Under the pieces are notes generated by a model. The model was not told the origin of the DNA, made no database searches, and saw only the letters and a list, made by a program, of their open reading frames with translations. This document shows positions 10,065 to 54,158 of a stretch of 64,000 nucleotides of DNA, piece after piece. The DNA is from a bacterium. GTDB lineage: Bacteria > Patescibacteriota > Minisyncoccia > UBA6257 > 2-01-FULL-56-20. Location: assembly GCA_027310625.1 (NCBI GenBank), contig DAIDAM010000003.1:2239-66238 (forward strand). Direction: 5' to 3'. Positions within the stretch are counted from its first letter, which is position 1, and each line of letters starts with the position of its first letter. The position numbers were made by a program, and so were the translations under genes.

Positions 10065-10077
10065 GTGGAAATTATGT

Positions 10078-10104
10078 CCCTCATTCGCGCGAATGGTAGA
10101 ATAA
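10078..10104. promoter_or_regulatory. operator/promoter motif copy 3 (identical 27-mer to copy 1) upstream of Zn-ribbon gene B
   Basis: CCCTCATTCGCGCGAATGGTAGAATAA, ~50 nt upstream of the start at 10153. Confidence 0.7.
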
Positions 10105-10152
10105 ACAAAACAACAAAATCATAGGCGCTATGACTAGTCATAGCGGTATAAA

Positions 10153-26603: not shown

Positions 26604-27093
26604 CGATTACGCTCATCATCCGACGGAGATAAAAGCGACGCTTGCCGCGTTCAGGGAAAAGTTTCCTAAAAGCGAGATTGTCTGCGTTTTCCAGCCGCAT
26701 CAGGCGGAGCGGCTCAAGCTTTTATTCAAAGAATTTCGTAACGCCTTTGACGGCGCTGATAAAACAATAATTATGCCGATTTACAAAGTCGCCGGCCGCG
26801 AATCGTCGGTTAACTCCGAATATGACGCCGCGGCGCTCGTAAAATCAATCCAAAAAATGAAACCGCCGCGGAAAGTTTTTTATCTGAAAGACCCGAAAAA
26901 CTTGAAAAAGGCGCTAAAAATTCTCTTGTCCGATTACTCGCTCCCCTGCCCCCTTCCGCGTAAGTCGGCGTTAAGTCAGCGTGAGTCTGCGTCAGGTCCG
27001 CGTCAGTCCGCGGTCGTGATAATGATGGGCGCCGGCGACATTGTAAATTACACGGATTCACTCATTAAAAAAGACAGGGCCAGCAAGCGCTAG
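26596..27093 (+). pseudogene. murC: murC C-terminal domain in shifted frame (frameshift at AAGTATC x3; alternatively a sequencing or population variant)
   Basis: The frame gives 'VYDDYAHHPTEIKATLAAF...VCVFQPHQ...IMMGAGDI', the canonical MurC C-terminal motifs. Deleting one 7-bp unit restores a single ORF ('...RGKYQVSVYDDYAHHPTEI'). Confidence 0.7.
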
Positions 27094-33863: not shown

Positions 33864-34145
33864 ATGGGGCTTAAGGAAAATTACCTTAAAGAACTCAAAA
33901 AAAGGGCTGCGGAATCGAGAGTTTATAAAAAATATCAGCTCTTCGGACTTGAAATCGCTTCGCTTCTCGGAGACGAAAAACACAAATCGCTTTACATAAA
34001 ACTTGCGAAAGAAAACAACCCGGAAAAACTCTTGGGTATAGCCAAAAAAATCTCTGAAAACAAGAATGTAAAAAACAAAGGAGCGTATTTTATGACAATT
34101 GTTAAGACATCAGTCATCAGACACAAGACACCAGGGAGAAAATGA
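33864..34145 (+). CDS. hypothetical Lys-rich small protein
   Basis: ORF only, AT/Lys-rich. Confidence 0.25.
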   Translation: MGLKENYLKELKKRAAESRVYKKYQLFGLEIASLLGDEKHKSLYIKLAKENNPEKLLGIAKKISENKNVKNKGAYFMTIVKTSVIRHKTPGRK

Positions 34146-34516
34146 GCAAAATAAAATCTTTTCAGGAATTGAAAGTTTGGCAGGACGCGCACAAATTTAC
34201 GATTCTCATTTATAAAATAACAGAGAAGTTTCCCGCCAGCGAACAATTTGGACTAACCCTACAATTAAGACGCTCGGCGTCGTCAATCGGCGCGAACATT
34301 GCCGAAGGATTTGGAAGATATCACTACAGAGAGAAAGTAAAGTTTTATCTAAACGCGAGAGGTTCAGCAGTTGAATCAGAAAATCATATTTTGCTTGCGA
34401 GAGATTTAAAATACACAACAACAATCGAATACGAAGCACTGCATGAGTTAATAAAAGAAATATTGAGAGAATTGAACGGCTTAATAAATTCAACCGGTAA
34501 AACTCGTAACGATTGA
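34142..34516 (+). CDS. four-helix-bundle protein (23S rRNA-intervening-sequence protein family), copy 1
   Basis: 'FQELKVWQDAHKFTILIYKITEKFPASEQFGLTLQLRRSASSIGANIAEGFGR'. Confidence 0.8.
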   Translation: MSKIKSFQELKVWQDAHKFTILIYKITEKFPASEQFGLTLQLRRSASSIGANIAEGFGRYHYREKVKFYLNARGSAVESENHILLARDLKYTTTIEYEALHELIKEILRELNGLINSTGKTRND

Positions 34517-34565: not shown

Positions 34566-35135
34566 ATGGATAAAATAGTCACAATAGAAAATAAAAAGGA
34601 CGAAAAATTTCTTCGCGAGAAAACGAAGAATTTTGACTTCGAAAAATTCAACAGAAAAGAAATAAATTCGCTGGTGGAAGGGATGAGGAAAGCGATGAAA
34701 ACGGCGAACGGCATAGGATTGAGCGCAAACCAAATCGGATTGGACATGCGCGTTTTCGTCGCCCAGATACAAAAAACCGACAGAATAGGCAAGGCGCGGC
34801 ATCTTTCGGCGGGAGAACAGAAATTTTACGCAATTTTCAATCCCGAAATAATAAAATCATCCGGAGAAAAAACGAAATCAGAGGAAGGATGTTTGAGCAT
34901 TCCCGGCTTTTATGGCGAAGTTGAAAGACCGGAGAAAATAACACTTGTCGGCATGGATAAAAACGGAAGGAAAATAAAAATAAACGCCTGGGGACTGCTC
35001 GCAAGAGTGTTCCAGCACGAAATGGACCACCTGAACGGCAAGCTGTTTATAGATAGGGCGAAAAAAGTTTATCATGTCCCGACTTCCGAGCGGTTAAAAG
35101 AGTATCAAGAATCAAGAAATATGAAGCATGAATGA
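34566..35135 (+). CDS. def: peptide deformylase
   Basis: 'EGCLSIPG', 'HEMDHLNG', 'GIGLSANQIG'. Confidence 0.9.
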   Translation: MDKIVTIENKKDEKFLREKTKNFDFEKFNRKEINSLVEGMRKAMKTANGIGLSANQIGLDMRVFVAQIQKTDRIGKARHLSAGEQKFYAIFNPEIIKSSGEKTKSEEGCLSIPGFYGEVERPEKITLVGMDKNGRKIKINAWGLLARVFQHEMDHLNGKLFIDRAKKVYHVPTSERLKEYQESRNMKHE

Positions 35136-35514
35136 AAATTCCAAAAAAATAAAAAATTTTACAGACCTGATTGCTTGGCAGGAAGCCCAAAAATTGATCC
35201 TGAGAATATACAAAATAACCAAAAATTTTCCGAGAGAAGAGCGATATTCTTTAACAGACCAAATAAGAAGAGCAGCAATTTCTGTTACGTCAAATATAGC
35301 TGAAGGATTCTCACGTAATTCCTACAAAGAAAAAATTTATTTCTATTCCATAGCGCAAGGTTCTTTAACAGAATTGCAGAATCAACTAATTCTCAGCAAA
35401 GATCTTGGATACCTCTCTAATAGTGATTTTGATGAAATTTTTGCGCACTCTGTTTCAACGCATAAGCTTATAAATGGATTAATAAAAGGAGCAAGAAAGA
35501 TTTCTCTTGCATGA
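35128..35514 (+). CDS. four-helix-bundle protein (23S rRNA IVS protein family), copy 2
   Basis: 'FTDLIAWQEAQKLILRIYKITKNFPREERYSLTDQIRRAAISVTSNIAEGFSR'. Its start overlaps the def stop. Confidence 0.8.
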   Translation: MNENSKKIKNFTDLIAWQEAQKLILRIYKITKNFPREERYSLTDQIRRAAISVTSNIAEGFSRNSYKEKIYFYSIAQGSLTELQNQLILSKDLGYLSNSDFDEIFAHSVSTHKLINGLIKGARKISLA

Positions 35515-35524
35515 TTCTTGATTC

Positions 35525-36448
35525 ATGATTCTTAATTCTCGATTTGTTTTCTTCGGCACGCCGGAATTTGCCGCAACAATCCTTGAAAAGCTGATAAGTT
35601 CCGGATTTGTTCCGGAGGCGGTTGTCTGCAACCCCGACCGCCCCGTCGGCAGGAAGAAGGTTATCACTCCCCCGCCGGTGAAACTGCTAATTATGAAGCA
35701 GGAAGCAAGAATCAAGAAGCAAGTTAAAATTTTTCAGCCAGAAAAATTAGATAAACAATTTCTTGATTCATTATTCTTGATTCATGATTCTTTTGATTTT
35801 TTTGTCGTTGCCGCCTATTCCCAAATTCTCCCTAAAGAAATAATCGAAATACCGCGGCTCGGAACAATCGGCGTCCATCCTTCGCTTCTGCCGAAATACC
35901 GCGGCGCCTCCCCCATCCAAGGCGCGATACTGAACGGAGAAAAGGAAACAGGCGTAACGCTTTATTTGATGGACGAGAAAACGGACCATGGGAAAATAGT
36001 ATCAAGTATCAGGTATCAAGTATCAGGGAATGAGAATTACAAAACATTGGAAAAAGAACTTGCGGAACTCGCGGGAAATCTGCTTGTGGAAACGTTGCCG
36101 AAATTCATCAAAGGAGAAATAAAACCCGTGCCGCAGGACGAATCAAAGGCGACCTACACGAAAAAATTCACGACTGAAGACGCGTTCATTGATGAAAAAA
36201 CTCTGGAAGAAGCGCTAAACGGAGAAAATGAAGAAACGGCTGAAAAAATCTATCGCAAAATTCTGGCTCTCAATCCCGAGCCGGGAACATGGACGTATGC
36301 GCGAGCACTGGAACATTCCAACGTTCTTGAGAATGTTGGAATGTCGTCTTCCGGCAAACGGATTAAGATTTTGGAGGCAAAAATTGAAAACGGAAAACTT
36401 GTTCTGAAAAAAATCCAGATTGAAGGAGAAAAACCCAAAGCCGTTTAG
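35525..36448 (+). CDS. fmt: methionyl-tRNA formyltransferase
   Basis: 'VFFGTPEFAATILEKL', 'NPDRPVGRKK', 'GVHPSLLPKYRGASPIQ'. Contains short in-frame repeat words (aagaatcaagaagcaag; agtatcaagtatcaggtatcaagtatcag). Confidence 0.9.
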   Translation: MILNSRFVFFGTPEFAATILEKLISSGFVPEAVVCNPDRPVGRKKVITPPPVKLLIMKQEARIKKQVKIFQPEKLDKQFLDSLFLIHDSFDFFVVAAYSQILPKEIIEIPRLGTIGVHPSLLPKYRGASPIQGAILNGEKETGVTLYLMDEKTDHGKIVSSIRYQVSGNENYKTLEKELAELAGNLLVETLPKFIKGEIKPVPQDESKATYTKKFTTEDAFIDEKTLEEALNGENEETAEKIYRKILALNPEPGTWTYARALEHSNVLENVGMSSSGKRIKILEAKIENGKLVLKKIQIEGEKPKAV

Positions 36449-38544
36449 CCGCGTCCCGATTCTTCCTCAACTTCCCAAACCTCTTTGCCGATATAGCGGC
36501 TGACCGCGTCCAGGTCCTTCATAAGTTTTTCTTCGCGGAGTTTTTCCTCCACGGAAATTTCTTTGCTCAATTTCACCTTGCGGATGACATTAAGTTCCGC
36601 TTCTATGTCGCGCTTCAAAATGGAAAACCCGCGGCGAACTGACTCTTCCGCTTCCTTAAGCATCGCATTGAGCCGGCGTTTCTTAACGTTGTAGTGATAA
36701 GCATGATAGACGGTGTAGGCGAGCAAACCGAGGAATGCAACAATGAATATGATGAAGAGAACGAGGTAAAGGTTCTCGAAACTCAAGCGCTTGCCGCCTA
36801 TTTGTATCGCCGTCTTCGCGACCGAAAGGTCCACTCGCGGGCTCGGCGGACTCACGCTGTCGCCATTCTGCAGCTGTGTCCAGGCGATATACTTGCCGGC
36901 GTCAAAGAATTTGGGGAAGGAGAAAAACCACGAACCGTCTTTGTCGGTCGTCGCCGTCTCCCCTATTGTGCTGCCGGTCTCCAGATTCTGAAGATAAATG
37001 AGAACTTTCGCCTGCGGAATTCCGGCGTTGCCGCCGATGTAAAGAATCTCGTCGTTCGAAATCGCCTGCGGGAAGAGAGTGACCACGGGCGGCTGCAGCG
37101 GAACGTTGTCTGTCGCCTGTGATTGCGATTGCGCGGCTTTCGCGGGAATGCCGGCGAACATCGAAAGCGAAAAGACGATTGCGAAGATGAGCGCTATCGC
37201 CAAATGTCTCCCGCCATATCCTTTGAATCTTTCCCTCATTTTTTTCAATTCTTCCAGTCCCGGAAGAATCGAGGGATGCTTCAGGCCGCCGTGCGCGAGG
37301 TGCTCTTCGATTTCGCGGTGCCGTTCCCAAAGCAGTTTCGCGAAATAGAAAAGTCCGATGAGAATTACGGCGCCGAGCGGCAGGGCGTAAATCCAGGGAA
37401 TGACGTATTCTCCTATGCCGATTCCTTCCAAATAAATAAATTCGAAGAATAGTTTTGTGATTGTCAGGTTTTGTTCCGTCTGATAATAGTTTCCCGCTTT
37501 GTCGTAGGCTTTGACGATGACTTTATAGCGTCCTTCGTCCAAATTGCGCGAATAAGGAGGCGCGGCCTCTATGAAAAACGGATTATTTCCCTGCGACGCG
37601 AGAGCGAGCTGTTTGTCGAGAGACGTGATGTTAAGTTCGTAATGGTCGATTCCGGAGGCGGCGTCGGTGGTTGCAAAATCGATAATCGGCCTGCGGTTGG
37701 AAGTTTGCCTGCTCGGCGAAATGTTTACTTTGAAAGACGCCGGCGGCGTGTTGTCCACATTTATGATGTAATCCGTTATTCCACCCCAGCTGCCGCTTCT
37801 CAGCGTTTTGATATGAAAATAGTAAACGCCGTCTGCTAAATTGTTGTACACTGCTCTCGTCTTAATACCTTCGGGAACATCGTCCACATCCGTAACAGGA
37901 TTCTGGTCGAGAATGTAACTGTAACCCTCGATATCCGGCGGGGAAGTCCATTCTAAAGAAACGGTTTTGGTGTTGTACCATTTTTCCTGGTCGGGGTTGG
38001 TTCTCGACGTGACTATCGGGCCAGCGGGCGGCGGCAGCGTGAGATAATAAACGCCGTCGGTCATTTGACCGAGAACGTTCGTGCCGCGGCCGTCGTTCAA
38101 AAGCACGCGCGAACTGTCGGAAAATTTCAAAACCGCCGTCCCGATGCTCTTTACGCGGAAAGTGACAGTTGAAATCAGTCCACCGTCGGTATTCAGCCCC
38201 GGCGCCGGTATCGCGCCCTGAAAATTAAGCGTGCCGTTCAGATTATCGTAAGACGGTTGGTTGACCCAGACCTGTATGGAAGACCTGCCCGCCGTAGGCG
38301 AAGCAACCTGCAGTTTATCCGGCGGAAAAGTGAGATTGGCTTCGACGGCGTTGACCGACTGCCCTCCCGTATCCACGTAAATGGAAACGGAAAAAGTGCT
38401 CCCGCTCGTGAAACTTCCGCTCGCCGGTGAAACGTAAAGCGAAGCGGCGGCATTCGCTCCTGACGGCGAAATAAAAAAACCGACGAAAAGGGCGCTTACC
38501 AAAACAACGGAAAAACGACAGGTTTTTGTCTGTTTATCCATCAC
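36445..38544 (-). CDS. large surface protein: signal peptide, cohesin-like domain, Ig/FN3-like domains, TM helix, cytoplasmic coiled-coil tail
   Basis: N-terminus 'LYVSPASGSFTSGSTFSVSIYVDTGGQSVNAVEANLTFPPDKLQV...TVTFRVKSIGTAVLKF' is cohesin-like. 'DNTPPASFKVNISPSRQTSNRRPIIDFATTDAASGIDHYEL' is paralogous to the 45030-45989 protein. TM 'VIPWIYALPLGAVILIGLFYF'. Confidence 0.65.
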   Translation of the reverse strand: MMDKQTKTCRFSVVLVSALFVGFFISPSGANAAASLYVSPASGSFTSGSTFSVSIYVDTGGQSVNAVEANLTFPPDKLQVASPTAGRSSIQVWVNQPSYDNLNGTLNFQGAIPAPGLNTDGGLISTVTFRVKSIGTAVLKFSDSSRVLLNDGRGTNVLGQMTDGVYYLTLPPPAGPIVTSRTNPDQEKWYNTKTVSLEWTSPPDIEGYSYILDQNPVTDVDDVPEGIKTRAVYNNLADGVYYFHIKTLRSGSWGGITDYIINVDNTPPASFKVNISPSRQTSNRRPIIDFATTDAASGIDHYELNITSLDKQLALASQGNNPFFIEAAPPYSRNLDEGRYKVIVKAYDKAGNYYQTEQNLTITKLFFEFIYLEGIGIGEYVIPWIYALPLGAVILIGLFYFAKLLWERHREIEEHLAHGGLKHPSILPGLEELKKMRERFKGYGGRHLAIALIFAIVFSLSMFAGIPAKAAQSQSQATDNVPLQPPVVTLFPQAISNDEILYIGGNAGIPQAKVLIYLQNLETGSTIGETATTDKDGSWFFSFPKFFDAGKYIAWTQLQNGDSVSPPSPRVDLSVAKTAIQIGGKRLSFENLYLVLFIIFIVAFLGLLAYTVYHAYHYNVKKRRLNAMLKEAEESVRRGFSILKRDIEAELNVIRKVKLSKEISVEEKLREEKLMKDLDAVSRYIGKEVWEVEEESGRG

Positions 38545-38574
38545 AATTATTATAACATTCTTGTTTTCGCGTTT

Positions 38575-39441
38575 TTATTTTGTTTTATAAAACCTTCCAA
38601 AAAAGAAAATAAACGAAAAAACAATAAGCACAACCAGCAAGGTTATCCCCGGCCCCCGGATAAACGCTTTCCAGTCATAGGCAGCCACGAGAGCGACATT
38701 GCCTTTATTGTCGGAAGCTGAAATTTCAACTGCCCAGACATTTTTCCCGACGGCGGCAGGATTGGTTATCTCCTGCCAATCCGTCCACAAAAACCAATTT
38801 TTCAGACGACCGCGAATTTCCTTGACGCCCGAGCCGGCGTCTTTGACGAGGAAACCGACTAGTTTTTGTTCCGGATTCAACGGGTCGGCGCTTAGAGAAA
38901 GCTCCTTTATTTCTGGCGGGGTTTTGTCGGTGACGCCCGATTCGCTTGCAAGATACTCTGAAGTTGACTTGGTAAGAACAATTGGCGCGGGTTCGACGAT
39001 TGGAGTATACTCCGTCCCCTTTCCGTCATTTACATAAACAAGCGGGTTTATAAACGAAAGCTCAATTTTCCCTTCTTTAAGAACTTGGAATCGCGCGATG
39101 ATTATCTCTCCGCCGCCGCCGCTGAACGGCGTTATGCTTACTCCGGCAAGCGCTATCGCCCCGCTTTCCGAAAAAGCAGGTCTTGTCTGCCATACGCTTA
39201 TAATGGAACGGCTGTCATCAAAGGAAACAATCTTAATCTTGTCCGCGGGAAAAGAAATGCCCAAAGAATACCCGTTCAACGGAGAATCGGAGTCAATCAA
39301 TGCCTTGACGGAAATTTCGGAACCGACGGCGGCAGACTCGGGAGCCGAAAAATAAACTTTTGTTGAAGAAGCGTCGGCGAAATGTGAAGAAACAAAGAAA
39401 GTCAGTGCGGATATAAGGATGATTAAATTTGTTTTTTTCAT
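38575..39441 (-). CDS. cohesin-like domain surface protein with C-terminal TM anchor
   Basis: Signal peptide, 'VYFSAPESAAVGSEISVKALIDSDSPLNGYSLGISFPADKIKIVSF...IIIARFQVLKEGKIELSF', C-terminal TM. Confidence 0.6.
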   Translation of the reverse strand: MKKTNLIILISALTFFVSSHFADASSTKVYFSAPESAAVGSEISVKALIDSDSPLNGYSLGISFPADKIKIVSFDDSRSIISVWQTRPAFSESGAIALAGVSITPFSGGGGEIIIARFQVLKEGKIELSFINPLVYVNDGKGTEYTPIVEPAPIVLTKSTSEYLASESGVTDKTPPEIKELSLSADPLNPEQKLVGFLVKDAGSGVKEIRGRLKNWFLWTDWQEITNPAAVGKNVWAVEISASDNKGNVALVAAYDWKAFIRGPGITLLVVLIVFSFIFFFGRFYKTK

Positions 39442-39480
39442 TTTTTCTAATTTCCAGATTCTAGTTTCCAGATTCTATTT

Positions 39481-40515
39481 TCACGATGCTATAGACCGGT
39501 AATATCTCTCGCCCGTCCAATAAAACATCATCACGGAAATGTCGGCGAAATCGACTCTGCTGTTTCCGTCAAAATCATATCGCGCAAACTCCGCTCCCCG
39601 CTCGCCATAAAAATAAATAAGTATTGAGAGGTCTATAAGATTAATTTTTCCGTCGCGATTCAGGTCAATCCTTGTGAAATCTTCCAGCGATGGTACGCGC
39701 GGGCCGAAGGGAGGCAAAAAGAACCCCGTTCCACCTCCCCCGCCTTGCTGAACGCCGCCACCATTATTGTTATTTTGCTGCTGTTGTTGCTGCTGGGAGC
39801 CGAAGAGCGCGAAGGAACTAAAATTGGCGGTAGAGAAAGTAACCGTTTTATTTGTAGTGTCGACTGTTGCCCCTGAAATTAATTGCCAAGAAGCATCACC
39901 GCTGCCCCACTTATAAGGGGCAAGGGTGCTTTGATCTATTCCGATAACATCGGAGTCGATATAAGTTGAAACAATAGTTGCCGTTTGCAGAAGAGTTGAA
40001 ACTGTCTCGCCGTCTGGGTTCACAAAAATGAAATCATAGGTTTTTCCTATAAAGTTTTTACCCGAGGGGGCCGGTTTGGTTGACGAAAAGAAACCGTTGG
40101 TATACGAAAACGCCTGCATCTGCAAGTCTTGAGTGTAAAAACCTGCCGGCAGAGTTATTTTAGCGGAGTCACCGCCGTTGGTTAGGGTGTAAGCACCACC
40201 AGTTGAAGCAGTAAAAGTTGGCTGTGCAGTTACCTCCGCACTGGTAGTGCAATTTGTTGTATTGAAAGTGCAAGAAGCGGAACAACTCAAAGTTCCGCTA
40301 CTAAAGCCGAGGTCGGTGCAACTTTTTACTCTCAAATCACTGCCATCGCACATTTCGCCGCCCTCCGCAGTATTATTTCCGCAAACCGAAATCTTGATTG
40401 TCGTATTTACCGTGGCATCTGGTGCGGCAAAACTAAATTTATGAAAAATAAAAAACGCGCCTCCAAAAACGAGTATGAAAAAGAAAAAATAAATAATTGA
40501 TTGATTGCTTTTCAT
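39481..40515 (-). CDS. secreted dockerin-domain protein with poly-Q/N/G linker
   Basis: C-terminal pair of Ca-binding dockerin repeats 'DLNRDGKINLIDLSIL' and 'DFDGNSRVDFADISVM'. Linker 'QQQQQQQNNNNGGGVQQGGGGG'. N-terminal signal peptide and Cys-rich module. Confidence 0.75.
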   Translation of the reverse strand: MKSNQSIIYFFFFILVFGGAFFIFHKFSFAAPDATVNTTIKISVCGNNTAEGGEMCDGSDLRVKSCTDLGFSSGTLSCSASCTFNTTNCTTSAEVTAQPTFTASTGGAYTLTNGGDSAKITLPAGFYTQDLQMQAFSYTNGFFSSTKPAPSGKNFIGKTYDFIFVNPDGETVSTLLQTATIVSTYIDSDVIGIDQSTLAPYKWGSGDASWQLISGATVDTTNKTVTFSTANFSSFALFGSQQQQQQQNNNNGGGVQQGGGGGTGFFLPPFGPRVPSLEDFTRIDLNRDGKINLIDLSILIYFYGERGAEFARYDFDGNSRVDFADISVMMFYWTGERYYRSIAS

Positions 40516-40564
40516 TCATCTCTAAAATATTCACCCCATTAGAAACGATGATTTTTTGATAGGG

Positions 40565-41179
40565 TCATTTTCTCGCTATTTGAAATTTAAACCTTTTGGA
40601 AATATACCAAAGCAAGGCCGCGACAAAAATCACCGCCAAAACAATGGTATCCCATGGGTGATAGCGCGAGTATAAACTGATAAAGCGGTAATAGATTCCT
40701 TGGAAAAAATTGGCTGGCGCAATTGTGAACCAAAGCTGAGTGGCAGCGGCAATGCCGATCGAAGTTTCGCCGGCAACAGATTTTTTCATCGGCTGGGCTT
40801 CCAAAAGCGCATAATAATTCCCCGGCGTTACTTTGGTCGGAAGAGTAAGTGTTACTTTGACGGTCTGGACCTTACCTGGTTCAAGAGAAAATGTTTGAGG
40901 CGTAAAAGTGAACCATTCTTCTGCCGGTCTAAGTCCCATATCGCTTCTCGTTTCCTGTTTTTCAAAGTATTGAACCGAAACTTGGTAATTAGCCGTCTCA
41001 TCGCCGGTGTTTAAAACCGGAACCGCCGGTAAATCATAAATACCGCCGGCTCTAAGCTGTTCATCTGTATAGATTTTGCCAGCACCAACTCCAACCCCGA
41101 TTCTGGCAAATACCGCAGCTGGCAGAATTAAAATCAGCGCAGATAATATTAAAAATTTTAACGCAGATTTAAAACTCAT
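40565..41179 (-). CDS. secreted beta-rich protein with C-terminal TM anchor and basic tail
   Basis: Signal peptide, then a C-terminal 'IVLAVIFVAALLWYISKRFKFQIARK'. The architecture recalls DUF916-type partners in WxL loci, which is an inference. Confidence 0.45.
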   Translation of the reverse strand: MSFKSALKFLILSALILILPAAVFARIGVGVGAGKIYTDEQLRAGGIYDLPAVPVLNTGDETANYQVSVQYFEKQETRSDMGLRPAEEWFTFTPQTFSLEPGKVQTVKVTLTLPTKVTPGNYYALLEAQPMKKSVAGETSIGIAAATQLWFTIAPANFFQGIYYRFISLYSRYHPWDTIVLAVIFVAALLWYISKRFKFQIARK

Positions 41180-41275
41180 AAATTATGATCGCAAAAACTT
41201 CCCATAGCCACATCCCGCTAGAAATGAAGCGCACAAAATTTTAATTTAACTTCGGCGTCAATTTCTAACGGGATT

Positions 41276-41797
41276 TTAAAAGGCAATAGCTGTGAGAGTA
41301 ACATTGGGGCTCTGCTGTGTGAACACGGTTGAAGGATTCGGCGTTGTGATCTGCAAGTTCAAGGTCGAGGTTCCCGCCGCCGCTATATTAGTCGCCAGGT
41401 CCTGATCCGAAGTGGTTAACGCCGTGCCACCAGAAAAAGTGGAACAAGTACCATTCTTGAACTGATGCACATATTGATCGCTTGCCGTCGTAGCTCCCAA
41501 TGCCCAGTTGGCGGTGGCCACCCCCTTGATCCTGAAAGTTTCCGCCACATTGCCATCATTAGTAACGGTTTGAGCATCGTTTAGTTCTGAAGTGCATGTG
41601 CTCTTGCTGGTATTAGAGCCGAGTGTTCCATACGCGACCGCACCATCAGCAACGGAAAGCGAAATACTCTGCACCGTAACCGTGGCCGTAACTGTTGCCG
41701 AAGAACCAGCCAAAGCCACTGAATAAGCGACGAGTATCCCAGCTAGCCCGATTATTCCAGTAGAAACAACGAACGGTTTTGTAATTTTTCTTGACAT
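41276..41797 (-). CDS. small secreted protein; whole protein is the domain shared with the C-terminus of 42104-43981 (W-x-L motif)
   Basis: 'TCTSELNDAQTVTNDGNVAETFRIKGVATANWALGATTASDQYVHQFKNGTCSTFSGGTALTTSDQ' aligns with 'TKSTCSTELNDAQTVTNNGNVNENFNIRGQNSANWTLGATAGSNQYVQKFLNGTCSTFSGGTALTTSDQ'. Confidence 0.55.
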   Translation of the reverse strand: MSRKITKPFVVSTGIIGLAGILVAYSVALAGSSATVTATVTVQSISLSVADGAVAYGTLGSNTSKSTCTSELNDAQTVTNDGNVAETFRIKGVATANWALGATTASDQYVHQFKNGTCSTFSGGTALTTSDQDLATNIAAAGTSTLNLQITTPNPSTVFTQQSPNVTLTAIAF

Positions 41798-41924
41798 ATC
41801 TTTGTTAATTTAAATTTATACCAAACTTATAATTCGACCATTTAATAAACACAAAAAGCGCCGCTAAAACAGCGCCTTAAGTGTCTACGATTATAAGTAA
41901 AGAAGTAAAATCGCGGAGCGATTT

Positions 41925-41959
<35 letters not shown>

Positions 41960-42103
41960 TTTTGACTCCGAGGTTTGATAAAATAAAATAAGTGTCCTTA
42001 TCATAGCCATATATAAACTACGAGTTTATTATACCACATATCAACTTGAAATGTAACCAATACAATTCCATTATATCACTAATCAGCTTGATAATCTACA
42101 ATT

Positions 42104-43981
42104 TTACGGTTGTACGGCGGTAATCGTCACATCCACTGACTGTTGAGTGTAAACCGTGGAAGGATTCGGGGTGTTAATTTGAAGATTCAGCGTGGCTGTC
42201 CCGCTCGGCGCAATACCAGTCGCAAATGACTGATCGGAAGTCGTCAGGGCAGTACCCCCAGAAAAAGTGGAACAAGTACCATTCAAAAATTTCTGCACAT
42301 ACTGGTTGCTTCCCGCTGTCGCCCCCAGCGTCCAGTTGGCGGAATTCTGACCACGGATATTGAAATTCTCGTTTACATTTCCATTATTAGTAACCGTTTG
42401 AGCATCATTTAATTCAGTAGAACAAGTGCTTTTGGTGGTGTTCGCCGGGATCGTCCCATAAGTGACCACTCCATCGGAAACGGTGACAGAAATAGTCGGC
42501 GTCAATGTGGTGAAAGTGTTGCAAGTCGTAGAATCTGTGAAAGTATTACTGCCATCAGGGTCTTTGACTGACGCCTTCCACCAGTATTGGGTGTTGTAGG
42601 AGAGTGCATCAGCTGACTGTAAAGTAAAACTGCCTTGAGTGCCGGAGTTATAGCATGATGTTGGATTATTGGTGCAGGTCGCGTCAGTTCCGCCCCAACC
42701 GGTAGAATTAGTTGATTGGTCATGAGCATTTCCTACAACCGTCGTGCATGCGCTGTTCGAATAAATTGTGACTTTATAGCTCAAATGGTCTGGGTCGGGA
42801 TCGGTCGCGGTCATTAAAAAAGTTGGGGTTACCGAAACGCCAGTCGCGCTATTTGCCGGCGAATCCTGCGAAGGCGCGTTGGGCGCGACATTAGTGTTTT
42901 TTTTCGCGTAAACCACATTGAAATAGAGCGGCATGTTGTCCGTACCGGTATTGAAAGTGGCAGTAAGGGTATGGGTATGCGTCGAACCGGCGGCCGCGGT
43001 GCCACTTGTTGAGCTGCCCTTTGTTTTGGCGCTGGCTGCGCCGGACGCGCCGCTGGTTTCGTTGGCATGATCATGGGTTGTGGCGCCCTGTGAAGTGCCA
43101 TTATAACTCGTGAAGTCGCGAATAAATTGCTGATAAAAGGGGCCTCCACTTGCCGATTTTATTGTCCATGCCGAACCCGGATCGCCGTCGAACATGGCAA
43201 TCATTCCATTGGGCAAAGATGCAGTATTAGAATTCGCCTTGGCGATGATTACTTGAATATAAGGCGGGAGAGCTGTCATGCTTGCGGTTTGCGTAGCAGC
43301 GGGGGCAGTATGGGTATGCGTAGTTGCGGCACCTGCATTAGCTGTACCAGAGCAAGTATTGAGCGTACCGTTTGCAGTTCCAAGAGAACTCCAAGTAAGC
43401 GAATGGGTATGCGTGTCTGATCCTCCCGTGCCGACCGTGGAGTTAACTTCAATCATTTTATTGTTGATGGTGCCCGATTGATCAGTCCATCCTGAAGGAG
43501 CAGCTGCGTCAAAAATCGCGATTGCGCCGGCCGGAATGGAAACAGGAATGCCGGCGTCAAATTGAATGAGTTTATAACTTTGATAAGCCGGCAAATTGTT
43601 CGCCGACCCAACCGTGACGGAAAGCGAAGCGTGTGTGTGATTGTAGGAAGAACAAGAGTTGGTAGAAGCCGCAGTCGTTCCTGCTGATGGCGCGCTGTTT
43701 GTGACACTTGCTACCGTTGGCGTATGCGTGGAATTTCCTCCAGTCGTGCCGAAATTCGCCACCGCCTCTCCGCGCGGGAACTTTCCGTCATAAGTTGTTA
43801 CGATACTCCAGCCGGTCGGAGCAGACGCACCATCCCAAAAAAGAAGCATGCGCACTGTGGCGGCTTTTGCATCTTTTGCCCCCGGGGGCACGGGTGGATT
43901 ATTCCAAATTCGCGGCCAGCCGGAAAAAATCCAACCTGCTATTAAAACTATAATTAAAAATTTTTTTATATAACGAGACAT
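42104..43981 (-). CDS. large surface protein: N-terminal anchor, three phage-tail-collar-like repeats each followed by THTH segments, C-terminal shared (W-x-L motif) domain
   Basis: 'MLLFWDGASAPTGWS', 'IAIFDAAAPSGWTDQSGT', 'MIAMFDGDPGSAWTIK' resemble the 'FAGxxAPxGW' motif of phage tail collar/Mdp domains. 'GGSDTHTHSLTW', 'TTHTHTAPAAT'. C-terminal 160 aa homologous to 41276-41797. Confidence 0.55.
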   Translation of the reverse strand: MSRYIKKFLIIVLIAGWIFSGWPRIWNNPPVPPGAKDAKAATVRMLLFWDGASAPTGWSIVTTYDGKFPRGEAVANFGTTGGNSTHTPTVASVTNSAPSAGTTAASTNSCSSYNHTHASLSVTVGSANNLPAYQSYKLIQFDAGIPVSIPAGAIAIFDAAAPSGWTDQSGTINNKMIEVNSTVGTGGSDTHTHSLTWSSLGTANGTLNTCSGTANAGAATTHTHTAPAATQTASMTALPPYIQVIIAKANSNTASLPNGMIAMFDGDPGSAWTIKSASGGPFYQQFIRDFTSYNGTSQGATTHDHANETSGASGAASAKTKGSSTSGTAAAGSTHTHTLTATFNTGTDNMPLYFNVVYAKKNTNVAPNAPSQDSPANSATGVSVTPTFLMTATDPDPDHLSYKVTIYSNSACTTVVGNAHDQSTNSTGWGGTDATCTNNPTSCYNSGTQGSFTLQSADALSYNTQYWWKASVKDPDGSNTFTDSTTCNTFTTLTPTISVTVSDGVVTYGTIPANTTKSTCSTELNDAQTVTNNGNVNENFNIRGQNSANWTLGATAGSNQYVQKFLNGTCSTFSGGTALTTSDQSFATGIAPSGTATLNLQINTPNPSTVYTQQSVDVTITAVQP

Positions 43982-43983
43982 AC

Positions 43984-44535
43984 TTAAGGCGTACCCAATA
44001 CATTGGGATTTGTAATATCAAAAAGTGTTTCGGAAATAAAATTGGAGCTATTTTTGCAGGATTCGTAACTCACTCCCGCACCGGAGCCAATACAAGCATC
44101 GAAATCATAGCCGTATTCTACAAAGCTATAATGGCCCGGCGGTAAATTGGTAAGAGGGGTGCCATTATTGCCGAAACACTGCGGAGTGCATAAAGAAAAT
44201 TCTCCGACAGTCCGCATGGAATTGATATCTTGATCAAAATATTTAATCGCAGCACAGAGGTTATTGGCGGCATCCAGATTATTACTAATGGCAATCGGAT
44301 GGTCGGGTTTATCTAAATTATAGATAAAGCCGTTATGATTATTAAAATCAAAATCGCTGAAAGCTATTGCGCAAGCATTATCTGCCGCTGGAGTGGCAAT
44401 ATTTATCGCCCGCGCCTCTCTAATTTCTGGCGGTATTCGTAGATTTTGCCAAATCTGCGGCCGGCCGGAAAAAATCCAAGCAAAAATAATAAGAAATATA
44501 ATTCCTGTCCGTAAATATTTAATGTGCGCATTCAT
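43984..44535 (-). CDS. hypothetical protein sharing N-terminal anchor motif with 42104-43981
   Basis: 'IFAWIFSGRPQIWQNLRIPPE' versus 'IAGWIFSGWPRIWNNPPVPPG'. The DNA is also similar (ccaaat(c/t)tgcggcc(g/a)gccggaaaaaatccaa). Confidence 0.45.
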   Translation of the reverse strand: MNAHIKYLRTGIIFLIIFAWIFSGRPQIWQNLRIPPEIREARAINIATPAADNACAIAFSDFDFNNHNGFIYNLDKPDHPIAISNNLDAANNLCAAIKYFDQDINSMRTVGEFSLCTPQCFGNNGTPLTNLPPGHYSFVEYGYDFDACIGSGAGVSYESCKNSSNFISETLFDITNPNVLGTP

Positions 44536-44606
44536 CTGCTATTAATCTATATTATAACAAGTGGAACGGCGTGCAATACTTAATTGCTTCTTGACTGCTT
44601 TACTTT

Positions 44607-44677
44607 ACCCCGTTAGAAATCGGACGAATAACGAATTCAGGCGGAGTTATGCAACTATGTCTGATTTCTAACGGGGT
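44607..44677. other. long near-perfect inverted repeat ACCCCGTTAGAAATCGGAC...(33 nt)...GTCTGATTTCTAACGGGGT
   Basis: 18 of 19 bp complementary arms in a 500-bp non-coding gap. Possible structured RNA or regulatory site. Confidence 0.4.
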
Positions 44678-44935
44678 TTATATTCAATCAAAATTTCCTG
44701 CTTATCTTTTAAAACATGATTTTCGTAGTCGGCATTCGGCTAACTGTCAACAGACGTTACAGTTTTGCGACTGTCATCGGTTTGATAATCCAAAATTTGG
44801 TTTTTGAAAAACAGCTTGCCTCAGACGCTGAAAAAATCTGCAAGCATTAGGGGGATTTACCGAAAAATTCTCGCTTTCACTCCCTAGCCGGGAGTTTGGA
44901 CGCTCAAACAAACGCCGGACAAGCGCCGGAGAGTC

Positions 44936-45030
44936 AAACTGCTTGAGGCAAAAATTGAAAACGGAAAATTAATTCTCCGAAAAATTCAGACGGAGGGAGA
45001 AAAACCGAAACGCCTTTACGGTGTTTGAGT
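44936..45030 (+). pseudogene. fmt: relic duplicate of fmt 3' end (encodes ...KLLEAKIENGKLILRKIQTEGEKPKRLYGV*)
   Basis: Matches the fmt C-terminus 'KILEAKIENGKLVLKKIQIEGEKPKAV*' at 36365-36448. The first 22 nt are identical (ggcaaaaattgaaaacggaaaa), then ~75% identity. No upstream ORF. Confidence 0.7.
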
Positions 45031-45989
45031 CAGCGCTTGAAGCCGTCTTTTTCTATTTTGTTTATTTCTCGCCGTAATTCTTTGCCAAATTCGGCGGCAT
45101 CGCGCTCAACCGCATCTCTCAATCTCTTGAACCGCAGACCAATTAAGTACAAAGTGAATAAAACCTCGATTATCGTGAGCGGCAAAATCCACCAACTGGT
45201 GAAAAATATCAGCAACCGGTAAAGAAGCGACGCCGGCTCGGTTTTGGGCACAACGCTGAACTGAATCACCGAATCGCGGAAATTTCCCGCGAAATCGTAG
45301 GCGCGAACGGCCAGAATTCTTGAATACTTCGTAGATTGTTCGGGTAAAACGTAATCTCCGTCTTCGTTTTTCAAAATTTCGGGATTAAACCATTCCCCTT
45401 CCCCGATTTTCGCTTTCTCGTAGGCAACGCCGGATACTCTGTCGCTTGCTTTCCAGCCGAAAACCGGACGATTGCTTGAAATATCTTTGTCAACGCGCGT
45501 TATGTCAAATGACTCCGGCGGCGTCCTGTCCAAAAGAAAATGTTTTACTGTAATCGGCCCCCAATAACCCCTTTCGTTAAAGGCGACGGAAAAATAACGG
45601 TCGCCGTCAACAAGCGGCCTCAGGTCATACGCGGCTTCCGACACTCTTCCTTTGCTGACTTTCGGAAATTCGTAATTGAGATTTTCCGAAAAAACATAAT
45701 TCACGCCTTCCACTGCCGGAGGAATTTCCCAGCTGAATTTTATCGAATCCAAACTGTAGTACCTGCATTCAATTACATTCACGGGCGGTTCCGAATAAAT
45801 CACCGGAGCCGGGATGTAAGGAACTGTTGATGTTGTGCGATAGAGCGTAAACTCGTTCGGCAGAAGTATGCAGGAACCGGTCCACTTGCAAACAATCGGC
45901 GTGCTTCTCACCCACAAAAGAGAAAAAATTATCGCGGCGGTGACGGCGATTATCAAAACAATCACGCCGACGTTGCCTTTGGCATTCAT
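45030..45989 (-). CDS. membrane-anchored surface protein with Ig/FN3-like ectodomain, paralog of central part of 36445-38544
   Basis: N-terminal TM, 'DRTPPESFDITRVDKDISSNRPVFGWKASDRVSGVAYEKAKI', 'VRAYDFAGNFRDSVIQFSV', C-terminal TM plus charged cytoplasmic tail. Confidence 0.55.
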   Translation of the reverse strand: MNAKGNVGVIVLIIAVTAAIIFSLLWVRSTPIVCKWTGSCILLPNEFTLYRTTSTVPYIPAPVIYSEPPVNVIECRYYSLDSIKFSWEIPPAVEGVNYVFSENLNYEFPKVSKGRVSEAAYDLRPLVDGDRYFSVAFNERGYWGPITVKHFLLDRTPPESFDITRVDKDISSNRPVFGWKASDRVSGVAYEKAKIGEGEWFNPEILKNEDGDYVLPEQSTKYSRILAVRAYDFAGNFRDSVIQFSVVPKTEPASLLYRLLIFFTSWWILPLTIIEVLFTLYLIGLRFKRLRDAVERDAAEFGKELRREINKIEKDGFKR

Positions 45990-46306
45990 CCCGTTAGAGA
46001 CAGGAAGCGTTTCATTCTATTTTTCAGATAGCGCTTGCCCATGCCTGATTTAAGGTATCTTTCTCTCGACCTTGCGTCGGCGACGTTTTTAGAAAATTCT
46101 CCATAGATGAGTTCAAATGGACCCCTGCCCCTAGTCCAGCCGGCAACACCATCATTGTGCTCATTGAAGCGCTTCCGTAAGTTATCAGTGAAGCCTGTAT
46201 ACCACACACCGTCCCTCTTGCTGCGCAAGACATAGACATAGTAGAATTTATTGTCTCTAACGGGATTCACTTCCGCTAGATTATACCAGCGGCAGCCGAA
46301 TATCAA
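45986..46306 (-). CDS. GIY-YIG nuclease family protein (UPF0213-like)
   Basis: 'FYYVYVLRSKRDGVWYTGFTDNLRKRFNEHN'. Confidence 0.75.
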   Translation of the reverse strand: MIFGCRWYNLAEVNPVRDNKFYYVYVLRSKRDGVWYTGFTDNLRKRFNEHNDGVAGWTRGRGPFELIYGEFSKNVADARSRERYLKSGMGKRYLKNRMKRFLSLTG

Positions 46307-46310
46307 AAAA

Positions 46311-46382
46311 TGGGGGTTCGTCTAATGGTAGGACACATCCCTTTGAAGGATGGTATTGGGGTTCGAGTCCCTGACCCCCAGC
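46311..46382 (+). tRNA. tRNA-Gln (anticodon UUG)
   Basis: Cloverleaf folded by hand: acceptor TGGGGGT/ACCCCCA, D-arm GTCT-AATGGTA-GGAC, anticodon arm CATCC-CTTTGAA-GGATG, T-arm TGGGG-TTCGAGT-CCCTG, discriminator G. Confidence 0.7.
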
Positions 46383-47585: not shown

Positions 47586-47641
47586 GAAAAATACTGAAAC
47601 TAATTTCATCGATAATCGCAAACCAGTAAACGAGAGTTTCC

Positions 47642-47680
47642 GAAAACACAAAAGCCCCGCAAAGGGGCTTTTGTGTTTTC
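47642..47680. terminator. bidirectional intrinsic terminator, 17-bp perfect arms GAAAACACAAAAGCCCC-GCAAA-GGGGCTTTTGTGTTTTC
   Basis: Lies between convergent genes ending at 47585 and 47703. GC core stem with U-tracts on both sides. Confidence 0.8.
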
Positions 47681-47702
47681 GGCGTTTTCAGTTTTCAGAA
47701 AC

Positions 47703-47921
47703 TTACAGCGAATTCAAATCGGTATCAACAGGTCCGAAGTCCGGCTCCTGAACGTTTATGCTGTTCAGATTGCTGTTGATGGAAGCGGTGTTGTCGCTCG
47801 TTGACAAAGCTCCCGCCGGCGCGCCGGTTGTCGGAGCGGAAGCGGGCTGATTCGACCACCACCAAACACCGAGAATAATAATGACGACAACTGCGATTAA
47901 AATGTAGGTTGATTTGTTCAT
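47703..47921 (-). CDS. small membrane/secreted protein
   Basis: 'MNKSTYILIAVVVIIILGVWWWSNQ' anchor, then a low-complexity S/N/T tail. Confidence 0.4.
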   Translation of the reverse strand: MNKSTYILIAVVVIIILGVWWWSNQPASAPTTGAPAGALSTSDNTASINSNLNSINVQEPDFGPVDTDLNSL

Positions 47922-50555: not shown

Positions 50556-51008
50556 TTACTGGGTCAAAGAAATTGCGGTTCCGAGTTCTGCTGATGGCGC
50601 GCTGACGGTTACGCGTCCGGTGCTGGATGAAACCGAAACGTTATAGCCGCTGTCGTAGTCGGAAGTGCTCGTCCAGTGCGCTCCCGTCGCCGACGGGTCG
50701 AAGGGCATATTCGGAAGATAGGTGGGAACAACGCAACCCGCTATGTCGTATCCCCCGGTGTTCGCCATTTTTGTAGCCGTTTGAGGCAAAGCCCCCGCGG
50801 CGCAAGTGAAGATGCCTTTGTTGTCGGCCATGTTTTGTCCGATGGCGTTAAGTATTGCAAGAACGTTGGACTGTCTTTGCGTATTCCTTGCCTGAGCAAA
50901 CTGCCTTGCGGGGTTCAACGCAACTATTACTACCGCCGCCAAGATAGCTATGATGCCGATCACAACGAGAAGTTCTATCAAAGTGAAACCTTTCCTTGAT
51001 TGAAACAT
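50556..51008 (-). CDS. pilA: type IV major pilin (PilA-like)
   Basis: 'MFQSRKG|FTLIELLVVIGIIAILAAVV', the class III prepilin leader with cleavage/methylation site. 150 aa. Confidence 0.85.
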   Translation of the reverse strand: MFQSRKGFTLIELLVVIGIIAILAAVVIVALNPARQFAQARNTQRQSNVLAILNAIGQNMADNKGIFTCAAGALPQTATKMANTGGYDIAGCVVPTYLPNMPFDPSATGAHWTSTSDYDSGYNVSVSSSTGRVTVSAPSAELGTAISLTQ

Positions 51009-53645: not shown

Positions 53646-54158
53646 TCACCAATCAATCCTACCCTCGGAATTAACGAACACATTTAGCGTTTTCACGCCG
53701 TTGGAAATTGAAACCGTGCCGGAGACGTTGGAGTTACCATCAAGTTGCGAAAAAACAATCTCCGGTGCACCGCTGATATTCATTCCGCCCGTTCTTGGAA
53801 AAAACTCGTCGTAAACGGGATTTCTCGAGGCGTATAAGCTGCCCTGAAAAATGACGTAATTCCCCGCTGAGCCGAAGTAAATGCCGTGAGCGGACTGGTT
53901 CACGTTGTTCTGCGCGCTGTTGCGGGCTTTTTTCAAAATATAGACAACTGTATCGCGCTCCGCGCTTATTACCTTTTGCCTGTAAAAATCAACGCTTACG
54001 AGCAAACCGAGCGAAAAAATCACAACCATTATGAAAGCGGATATGGAAATTTCCCACAGAGTGAATCCCCCGCATAAATCATACTTTGTGCGGGGGAGCC
54101 CCTCACATAACTTGCTTATGCGGGGGGTATCGTCAGCGAATACTTGAGGTAACTTCAT
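53646..54158 (-). CDS. pseudopilin with extended leader (…DTPRISKLCEGLPRTKYDLCGG|FTLWEISISAFIMVVIF)
   Basis: Pilin-like N-terminal helix. The leader motif is duplicated. Confidence 0.6.
   Translation of the reverse strand: MKLPQVFADDTPRISKLCEGLPRTKYDLCGGFTLWEISISAFIMVVIFSLGLLVSVDFYRQKVISAERDTVVYILKKARNSAQNNVNQSAHGIYFGSAGNYVIFQGSLYASRNPVYDEFFPRTGGMNISGAPEIVFSQLDGNSNVSGTVSISNGVKTLNVFVNSEGRIDW

Follow-up and report, generated by a model that had tools for sequence, protein, structure and literature searches.

The surface-protein locus downstream of fmt in an uncultured Patescibacterium as a probable recombinant of two diverged chromosomal layouts

The region downstream of fmt, the gene for methionyl-tRNA formyltransferase, in the stretch of 64,000 nucleotides analysed here (the window) is best explained by recombination between two diverged forms of the DNA which follows fmt in related Patescibacteria (Paceibacteria-type) lineages, through a homologous crossover and an illegitimate joint; we give this reading a probability of about two in three. 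A working fmt is followed by a cluster of surface-protein genes spanning 8.4 kb, and at the far end of the cluster lies a second fmt tail which is displaced and decayed. An initial annotation had already described a block bounded by these two tails, and that description stands. The event is of a known kind and the locus is an ordinary scar of genome evolution, not a new type of genetic element or system. The features of the locus are collected in Table 1.

Table 1. Genes, relics and joint of the locus downstream of fmt (positions in the window)
Feature	Position	Strand	Description
fmt	35525..36448	+	methionyl-tRNA formyltransferase, intact, 307 aa; Pfam Formyl_trans_N 1.6e-35 and Formyl_trans_C
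A699	36445..38544	-	signal peptide, cohesin, Ig-like domain, membrane spans; Pfam Cohesin 4.2e-6 and Big_13
B288	38575..39441	-	cohesin-like A699 paralogue with C-terminal membrane anchor; 29% identity to A699 N-terminus
C344	39481..40515	-	secreted, C-terminal dockerin; Pfam Dockerin_1 6.4e-8
D204	40565..41179	-	fn3_5/PapD-like, membrane-anchored; Pfam fn3_5 9.8e-6
E173	41276..41797	-	C-terminus 70% identical to that of F625
F625	42104..43981	-	two-gene module with G183; N-terminal membrane anchor common to both
G183	43984..44535	-	N-terminal 41 aa in common with F625
174-aa gene relic (pseudogene)	44671..44844	-	last 62 codons of a secreted protein, 2 in-frame stops
Putative illegitimate joint between relics	44827..44854	.	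13-nt microhomology and filler
Displaced fmt tail (relic)	44855..45028	+	one in-frame TAG; without loop insertion
H319	45030..45989	-	membrane-anchored; paralogue of A699 middle domain, cohesin domain absent
GIY-YIG gene	45986..46306		Pfam 6.8e-15; between H319 and tRNA-Gln
tRNA-Gln(TTG)	46311..46382	+	ARAGORN; Rfam tRNA 56.8 bits

Counted from fmt, A699 is the opening gene of the cluster, and all seven ORFs between the tails are on the minus strand, as first noted. The same holds for the position of the two fmt tails, each of which borders on the stop codon (36445 and 45030) of a gene on the minus strand, and for the paralogy of the two genes concerned, A699 and H319 (25% identity over 259 aa, E 6e-18). 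The initial list of encoded proteins is confirmed as to cohesin (A699), dockerin (C344) and the C-terminal domain shared by E173 and F625, but the tail-collar assignment is not, F625 having no such Pfam match at E <= 0.01. D204 and E173 (40565..41797) make up the variable portion of the cluster and gave no homologues at 1e-5 among the fetched loci. The block encodes side by side an anchored protein with a cohesin and a partner with a dockerin (A699 and C344). No catalytic domain was found by Pfam in C344 or any other gene of the block, and a carbohydrate-active enzyme fused to a dockerin, as a cellulosome-like assembly would have, was not found in it. Judged from the domains alone, the block probably serves to display dockerin-bearing proteins at the cell surface on membrane-anchored cohesin proteins.

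The recurrence of the fmt 3' end, which the initial annotation had reported, is well above background. A gapped local alignment of the fmt tail with the relic scores 155, against 47 +/- 6.6 with a maximum of 66.5 for shuffled sequences (n=200). BLASTN of fmt against the window pairs 36374-36447 with 44945-45018 (81% over 74 nt, E 3e-14) and, as a second piece, 36248-36295 with 44855-44902 (79% identity, E 1e-5). The repeat had been put at ~95 nt; it exists, and the true relic is about twice as long (36248-36447 vs 44855-45018), the working copy being the final ~200 nt of fmt. Likewise the identical run exists but has 24 nt instead of 22 (36374-36397 = 44945-44968). The matched stretch measures 200 nt in fmt and 164 nt in the relic, which is 36 nt shorter. 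The relic covers about 57-65 terminal codons, its reading frame (...IYRKILAFTP, stop, PGVWTLKQTPDKRRRVKLLEAKIENGKLILRKIQTEGEKPKRLYGV, stop) contains a single in-frame TAG, and its end sits 1 nt short of the stop codon of H319. No RNA family was found in the relic region with Rfam, and the terminator and promoter scans gave background level only.

The two tails differ by 12 synonymous and 13 non-synonymous changes at 26.8 synonymous and 90.2 non-synonymous sites, giving a dN/dS of 0.24 (binomial p=0.005; dS ~0.68), an estimate underlain by only these 25 differences. Since the tails differ mostly at synonymous sites, both must have evolved within working fmt genes in separate lineages. Neutral drift would be expected of a fragment copied in place, and the dN/dS of 0.24 therefore argues that the relic was not made by copying in place. 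This is at variance with the original proposal of an old duplication followed by expansion of adhesin genes. The relic is 81% identical in nucleotides to the window's own fmt and at most 70% identical, over comparable length, to that of any fetched relative, which suggests that the partner lineage was a fairly close relative. No second fmt tail is present in any of 87 related loci, so the event appears to be specific to the window's lineage. The two relics should also be young, because only 3 stops and not one frameshift have accumulated in their ~120 codons.

The true right-hand joint is defined by the relic of a gene for a 174-aa protein. In a tblastn search of the window the 174-aa protein of a related locus, L004, finds this relic with 53% identity over 62 aa (E 1.7e-15), and the relic can be aligned codon by codon to intact genes in L004, L037, L017 and L006. 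The intact gene lies directly downstream of fmt in L037, L017, L006 and L031 and at the far end of the cluster in L004; the relic sits at exactly the expected terminus of cluster-type sequence. The two relics meet head-to-head with their truncated ends facing each other. At 44827-44839 the 13 nt GCTGAAAAAATCT, antisense in the 174-aa gene, are identical to fmt 36239-36251, and the 174-aa gene of L004 has the same 16-mer, GCAGATTTTTTCAGCG. Between this microhomology and the return of the fmt homology lie another 5 nt of the 174-aa gene and then ~10 nt of filler (44845-44854), and the microhomology may not coincide with the exact crossover point. The initial annotation had overlooked this second relic (44671-44844).

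Both parental layouts are found in relatives. In the H319-type layout, seen in L084-L087, def-fmt is followed on the opposite strand by H319 and tRNA-Gln, the latter being the conserved right-hand landmark. It had been suggested to look in related genomes for an fmt followed by the H319-type gene, and this is what was found: the gene follows the intact fmt directly in L084 and after one GNAT-like gene in L085-L087, and the 8.4-kb block is missing from all four. The upstream genes of these four are the same as in the window (S41 protease, 72-73%, L9 and L27). Full-length H319 orthologues (46-48%) adjoin both intact fmt and tRNA-Gln in L084 and L085; in L086 and L087 the H319 neighbourhood is visible on the fmt side only. 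A 62% homologue of H319 lies beside tRNA-Gln in L096, which comes from the same sample as the window and has no fmt relic. The displaced fmt tail has H319 as its native neighbour, tail-to-tail.

In the cluster-type layout def-fmt is followed by a cohesin/dockerin cluster on the opposite strand. The order fmt-A699-B288-C344, with the A699 orthologue tail-to-tail with fmt, occurs in L007, L019, L033, L045, L088, L098 and L101. The orthologues of A699 which adjoin fmt elsewhere, in many other species, are 50-63% identical, and more than 430 A699 homologues were found at E <= 1e-50 (best 63% identity). Orthologues of B288 (36-44%) come after A699 in L019, L033, L045, L098 and L101, and homologues of C344 hold the equivalent position in L004 and in all of the seven just listed except L088. 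The closest complete fmt in a GTDB scan is that of L004 (64%), which has two derived insertions in common with the fmt of the window, KQFLDSLFLIHDSFDFF and the tail-loop insertion; its layout is fmt-SOD-cluster-174-aa gene, and the cluster terminates in the intact 174-aa gene. The G183-F625 pair (58% and 65% identical) is found beside a glycosyltransferase in another genome, L097, in an unrelated context. L098 was considered as a carrier of both A699 and H319 and was rejected, its 319-aa protein being a B288 orthologue of coincidental length. A parental genome of >90% identity was not found among the available relatives, which have 45-73% protein identity, and protein searches for such a parent with H319, G183 and A699 gave best identities of only 62%, 58% and 63%.

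These data fit a locus in which cluster-type sequence on the left would extend into the middle of the 174-aa gene and H319-type sequence would make up the right portion, beginning ~190 nt ahead of the fmt end, the two halves having been fused illegitimately at the 13-nt microhomology. The outcome would be one complete fmt contiguous with A699 and the fmt tail of the other lineage stranded beside H319, where it decays. We infer a single event, and its most likely route would be that linear DNA of a relative was taken up and entered the chromosome by homologous crossover at one of its ends and by illegitimate joining at the other, i.e. homology-facilitated illegitimate recombination (HFIR). The window contains type IV pilus genes (pilin, PilC and PilB), which makes DNA uptake by the organism plausible. 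Base composition gave no decision as to which half is foreign: the tetranucleotide r of the block is 0.92-0.93, the least typical stretch, vs 0.97-0.98, a mild deviation which is common to the entire 36-52 kb region and may be caused by the amino-acid content of surface proteins. With 65-72% nucleotide identity the relatives are too distant for mapping breakpoints of a chimerism within the working fmt.

The final structure would be identical if two steps had been involved, the arrival of a larger foreign or duplicated segment giving two complete fmt genes, and a later microhomology-mediated deletion from the middle of the 174-aa gene to the middle of fmt, by which the redundant copy lost its 5' part together with all that lay before it. 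Such a course of events accounts for the dN/dS of 0.24 as well as for the microhomology at the joint, and small genomes are expected to delete redundant genes. We regard it as rather unlikely, since it requires one additional event, two fmt copies or tails are seen in none of the 87 loci, and the window holds no record of the deleted interval.

A microhomology-mediated tandem duplication within the genome, reaching from the fmt tail to the tail of the 174-aa gene, with subsequent divergence of the copies and loss of most of the second one, corresponds to the old duplication favoured by the initial annotation and is somewhat more doubtful still. The end of the 174-aa tail is fused to the point where the fmt tail starts, in the orientation of a tandem-duplication junction, and A699 is paralogous to H319. 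A fragment duplicated in this way would, however, be non-functional from the outset and should show a dN/dS near 1 instead of 0.24. The paralogy, which the initial annotation took as a sign of the same event, does not help either: at 25% amino acid identity A699 and H319 are far older than the tails with their 81% nucleotide identity, and A699 orthologues adjoin fmt elsewhere. In addition, the right side from H319 to tRNA-Gln is a separate layout which is intact in other genomes, and neither a second 174-aa gene nor a body of one follows the second copy.

Phages e14 and 21 integrate in the icd gene of E. coli and leave a displaced icd 3' pseudogene, in a reaction driven by an integrase at a defined att core. 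The working tail comes with the inserted DNA and the original one ends up stranded on the far side; most of the differences between them are synonymous. The window too has a working and a stranded tail with mostly synonymous differences, and a site-specific integrative island which entered at the fmt 3' end with its own replacement tail and has since lost its integrase would give this pattern; the 24-nt identical run and the "empty site" offered by L084 would also agree with it. We nevertheless consider such an island very improbable. A Pfam scan finds no integrase or recombinase domain in the seven ORFs, in agreement with the initial annotation, viral contigs scanned with F625 and A699 gave no matches, and the cargo is chromosomal in relatives, A699, B288 and C344 being chromosomal neighbours of fmt in at least seven other species. 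At the far end one finds a chromosomal gene that has been truncated, not the terminus of an element. The 24-nt run was tried as an att core and rejected, as a run of this length is reached in 5% of shuffles (p ~0.05), and no convincing core was found. The similarity moreover continues ~90 nt upstream of the run, unlike an attR arm, and similarity on both flanks makes an att site a weak basis for the target duplication suggested earlier.

Three runs (SRR5161795, SRR5161788 and SRR5161805), assembled independently in Logan, match the window at 100% identity over fmt-A699...E173 (L001) and over F625-G183-relic-H319 (L094, L095 and L106); the only break in these assemblies is an unbridged (TC)14 repeat at 41927-41955, where continuity comes from the deposited contig. 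That every Logan contig stops at one point (41927-41951) could be taken to indicate an assembly chimera of two co-occurring strains, but this is hardly credible, as the break is a microsatellite with the length of the assembler's word size, the relic pair lies within single contigs which are 100% identical in the three runs, and a chimera could not create the relics.

The proposed recombinant locus has features in common with several known systems. At the pneumococcal cps locus (dexB-aliA) the surface polysaccharide is switched via conserved flanks by clean double homologous crossovers which leave no truncated duplicates. The window likewise has a variable surface-structure locus between conserved flanks, exchanged among lineages, but it keeps truncated duplicates. 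In the T6SS clusters of Vibrio cholerae effector genes are displaced, and Rhs/CDI loci carry strings of orphan 3' ends (PMC5361080). There, as proposed for the window, a module enters via conserved upstream homology, the old downstream part is kept as a remnant, and a conserved 5' part lies beside variable 3' cargo. The anchor in the window is, however, the housekeeping gene fmt, functionally unrelated to the cargo, and there is one displaced remnant and no array. HFIR has been documented in the naturally competent bacteria S. pneumoniae, Acinetobacter baylyi and Pseudomonas stutzeri, the incoming DNA being anchored by homology at one end and joined at a short microhomology at the other (reviewed in PMC3240628). 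The same process has been put forward to explain comparable displaced-gene scars (PMC5361080). The window would resemble these cases in having foreign genes trapped beside a conserved gene, with homology at one end and a putative microhomology joint at the other. It differs in that the event is read from a natural scar in an uncultured Patescibacterium whose competence is putative, and in that, were the cluster the foreign part, the incoming piece would measure ~8.6 kb, a large size for HFIR.

Gene flow and competence in Patescibacteria are otherwise mostly inferred. The locus offers a footprint, datable and readable in its mechanism, of the exchange of DNA among diverged uncultured lineages of this group, in which a cohesin/dockerin surface-protein locus has been reshuffled at a fixed chromosomal site beside fmt. 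The relic pair can be used as a marker to track the window's lineage. It should also be noted, as a caution for annotation, that a seemingly intergenic region here holds two pseudogene fragments.

The position right after fmt is a clade-wide synteny breakpoint. It is conceivable, and we put it forward only tentatively, that the fmt 3' end serves as a standing homology anchor for transformation, by which these episymbiont-type bacteria exchange or stack cassettes of surface proteins time and again, and that the window is one example caught in progress. Such a role would be compatible with the diversity seen among 43 genomes, where 24 neighbour families are found downstream of fmt, while def lies upstream in 27. 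It would also be compatible with the indels which occur at the downstream junction of fmt even among strains that are 97-99.9% identical: a gene-sized indel at the fmt/H319 junction separates strains of 97% identity, and the fmt tail of strains otherwise 99.9% identical contains a mosaic patch of 130 nt which includes a 36-nt indel.

The 3' end of fmt is present twice, once on each side of the surface-protein block. When fmt was compared with the window by BLASTN, two collinear downstream matches were found, fmt 36374-36447 with 44945-45018 (81% over 74 nt, E 3e-14) and fmt 36248-36295 with 44855-44902 (79%, E 1e-5). A gapped local alignment of the fmt tail with the relic scores 155, and shuffled sequences score 47 ± 6.6, at most 66.5. 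The relic is 36 nt shorter than its matching fmt stretch and reads in a single frame as IYRKILAFTP*PGVWTLKQTPDKRRRVKLLEAKIENGKLILRKIQTEGEKPKRLYGV*. The repeat proposed in the initial annotation is thus borne out, with a relic about twice as long as stated there. Its description of the surroundings also holds: each copy of the tail abuts the stop codon of a minus-strand gene, every one of the seven ORFs between the copies lies on the minus strand, A699 has a cohesin and C344 a dockerin domain, an integrase is absent (no recombinase domain in any of the seven), and A699 and H319 are paralogues, though with only 25% identity.

Features of the window around fmt and the surface-protein block; properties of the block ORFs A699 to G183 are from domains only
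Feature	Position	Strand	Description
TrwB/VirD4-type coupling-protein ATPases	4212-5651; 11901-13652		two genes
575-622-aa paralogue family	8196-11880		beside these ATPases
Four-helix-bundle genes	34142-34516; 35128-35514		23S-rRNA-IVP-type, flanking def
AGAATCAAGAA/TTCTTGATTCT motif	35098-35132; 35510-35538; 35689-35794		
fmt	35525-36448	+	intact, 307 aa; Pfam Formyl_trans_N 1.6e-35
A699	36445-38544	-	membrane-anchored cohesin protein
B288	38575-39441	-	membrane-anchored cohesin protein
C344	39481-40515	-	secreted dockerin protein without catalytic domain
D204	40565-41179	-	fn3/PapD-like fold signature
E173	41276-41797	-	secreted or anchored
(TC)14	41927-41955		microsatellite
F625	42104-43981	-	secreted or anchored
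G183	43984-44535	-	secreted or anchored
Inverted repeat	44607-44677		19-nt arms, 95% complementary, 33-nt loop
174-aa gene relic	44671-44844	-	last 62 codons of secreted protein; 53% identity, two in-frame stops
fmt relic	44855-45028		last ~65 fmt codons; one in-frame TAG
H319	45030-45989	-	A699 paralogue without cohesin
GIY-YIG nuclease-domain gene	45986-46306		between tRNA-Gln and H319
tRNA-Gln(TTG)	46311-46382		
sraL match (Rfam RF01408)	47645-47780	-	46.8 bits, gathering score 39, E 9.7e-8
Pilin	50556-51008		type IV pilus
PilC	54133-55215		type IV pilus
PilB	55208-56437		type IV pilus

From their domains the block ORFs most likely encode a cohesin-dockerin display system at the cell surface. 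E173, F625 and G183 have modules in common: E173 corresponds to the F625 C-terminal domain (70% identity), and the first 41 aa of G183 are common to F625. The G-F pair recurs in another genome beside a glycosyltransferase (L097 3442-5894).

Patescibacteria MAGs with labels such as Liptonbacteria, Wolfebacteria and Paceibacterota are the nearest genomes, and the top identity of a complete fmt in a GTDB scan is 64%. Upstream, the order S41 protease, LigT, 93-aa gene, def, fmt is widely kept (def is the neighbour in 27 of the 43 genomes with an fmt at least 45% identical), while the downstream side is not conserved; its first gene belongs to 24 families in the same 43 genomes. In the cluster-type layout, present in L007, L019, L033, L045, L088, L098 and L101, fmt is tail-to-tail with a full-length A699 orthologue (50-62%) followed by homologues of B288 and C344, in some cases with SOD, GIY-YIG or four-helix-bundle genes in between. 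Since A699 orthologues adjoin fmt in relatives, and the family has more than 430 proteins of ~700 aa, the fmt/A699 junction is old and chromosomal and not the edge of a recent island. In the H319-type layout the intact fmt adjoins a full-length H319 orthologue (46-48%) of the same architecture, without cohesin domain and with upstream genes as in the window. This layout is found in L084, L085, L086 and L087; the comparison with related genomes that the initial annotation proposed as a check thus has a positive outcome. Just past H319 there is a tRNA-Gln(TTG) in L084, L085 and L096, as in the window.

Other genes were noted at these junctions. A GNAT-like gene of 184-191 aa lies between H319 and fmt in L085 (1267-1821), L086 and L087 (542-1202) and not in L084 (7045-7131); L084 is 97% identical to L087, and such near-identical strains thus show turnover on the scale of a gene right at the fmt 3' junction. 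In L009, L023, L035 and L075 the place immediately downstream of fmt is taken by inverted members of the 575-622-aa paralogue family, and therefore large inversions share the fmt 3' breakpoint. L084, L085 and L096 lack the GIY-YIG gene at its place in the window; L098, L005, L031 and L039 carry similar genes within or close to their clusters, which suggests that the gene is mobile.

A second relic, overlooked in the initial annotation though key, lies head to head with the first. The stretch 44681-44844 was first flagged by nucleotide comparison with the relative's locus L004, and it is the tail of a 174-aa gene (tblastn E 1.7e-15 against the window; aligned codon by codon with the intact genes of four relatives). 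The intact gene is immediately downstream of fmt and convergent in L037, L017, L006 and L031, and in L004 it lies where the surface-protein cluster ends away from fmt, in the order fmt, SOD, cohesin protein, B-like, C-like, ..., 699 aa, 174 aa, DoxX. L004 and the window also have two derived fmt insertions in common. Between fmt and 44844 the window is thus collinear with an L004-like layout that breaks off in the middle of the 174-aa gene; from 44855 onward it has the H319-type layout, in which fmt is reduced to its last ~190 nt. The two relics are truncated at the ends by which they meet. The inverted repeat that separates the start of G183 from the 174-aa relic extends over the stop codon of this relic.

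Read in antisense, the sequence GCTGAAAAAATCT at 44827-44839 gives the conserved DFFS codons of the 174-aa gene (the L004 gene has the same 16-mer as at the joint), and it is identical to fmt 36239-36251, just upstream of where the fmt relic begins. A 13-mer shared at the joint is unlikely to be chance and points to an illegitimate joint guided by microhomology. The joint is not clean: past the 13-mer the 174-aa gene continues for 5 nt, and ~10 nt of filler separate it from the fmt homology, which starts at 44855.

Over 39 alignable codons the fmt tail and the relic have 12 synonymous and 13 non-synonymous differences, on 26.8 and 90.2 sites respectively, which gives a dS of about 0.68 and a dN/dS of 0.24 (binomial p 0.005 for the synonymous excess). 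Most of the divergence therefore arose at a time when the two tails were still parts of functional fmt genes. Such a history is not possible for a fragment copied in place, which argues that two orthologues from separate lineages met and disfavours a simple tandem duplication. The relic is 81% identical at the nucleotide level to the resident fmt and at most 70% to any fetched relative over comparable length, so the partner lineage was a moderately close relative. A second fmt tail was absent from all other loci (87 checked). Together the two relics have just three stops and zero frameshifts, which suggests a fairly recent event.

The structure requires one homologous exchange, either within fmt or to its left or else at some point to the right of H319, and additionally one illegitimate joint. 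Homology-facilitated illegitimate recombination, known from naturally transformable bacteria (PMC3240628), would leave such a structure; it has also been proposed for similar remnants of displaced genes at Vibrio T6SS and Rhs loci (PMC5361080). DNA uptake is plausible since genes for pilin, PilC and PilB are found in the window. Neither half of the locus stands out as the resident one: the flanking genes resemble the two kinds of relatives to about the same degree, and the composition of the block is only mildly atypical. The locus is a known kind of recombination scar at a clade-wide synteny breakpoint and not a new system, though for an uncultured lineage it makes a neat example.

A two-step history, in which two full fmt copies were present and a deletion came later, is also conceivable. 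An in-place tandem duplication would give the observed orientation of the joint, but it fails both the dN/dS test and the age test; of the initial annotation the insertion reading was essentially right, and the preferred "old duplication" is not supported. That the block is an assembly chimera is very unlikely. Logan assemblies from three separate runs match the window at 100% identity, L001 covering def-fmt-A699...E173 and L094, L095 and L106 covering F625-G183-relic-H319-GrpB..., and the relic region lies inside single contigs. All of these contigs end at 41927-41951, in the (TC)14 microsatellite, whose length is close to that of the assembler's word. An integrase-type island of the e14/icd kind is rejected for four reasons: a recombinase is absent from the seven ORFs, the core is not significant (p about 0.05), the similarity reaches beyond the core on the wrong side, and the cargo is chromosomal in relatives.

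The microsatellite is located upstream of E173, with the F625 stop on one side and two terminator-like hairpins on the other, and its length could in principle vary. The working fmt has a 12-codon loop insertion (36296-36355), absent from the relic, with a 10-bp inverted repeat inside (hairpin arms about 36313-36344). L085 and L086, from the same aquifer, are 99.9% identical over ~1.8 kb and differ at the same place in fmt by a 130-nt mosaic patch that includes a 36-nt indel (L085 1920-2053). The motif GTATCAAGTATCAGG... is in frame in fmt at 36003-36040 and is found again 9.4 kb upstream at 26573-26610 (84% over 38 nt). Inverted repeats based on AGAATCAAGAA/TTCTTGATTCT bracket the four-helix-bundle gene between def and fmt, and a ~100-nt palindromic copy of the motif is in frame inside fmt, where it encodes KQFLDSLFLIHDSFDFF, common to L004. 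Members of the four-helix-bundle family also occur dispersed among the surface-protein genes in the clusters of L004 and L007, and the gene looks like a small mobile or repeat-associated one. The sraL match, unexpected in a Patescibacterium, overlaps a perfect 19-bp hairpin (47640-47682) and a 72-aa ORF (47703-47921).
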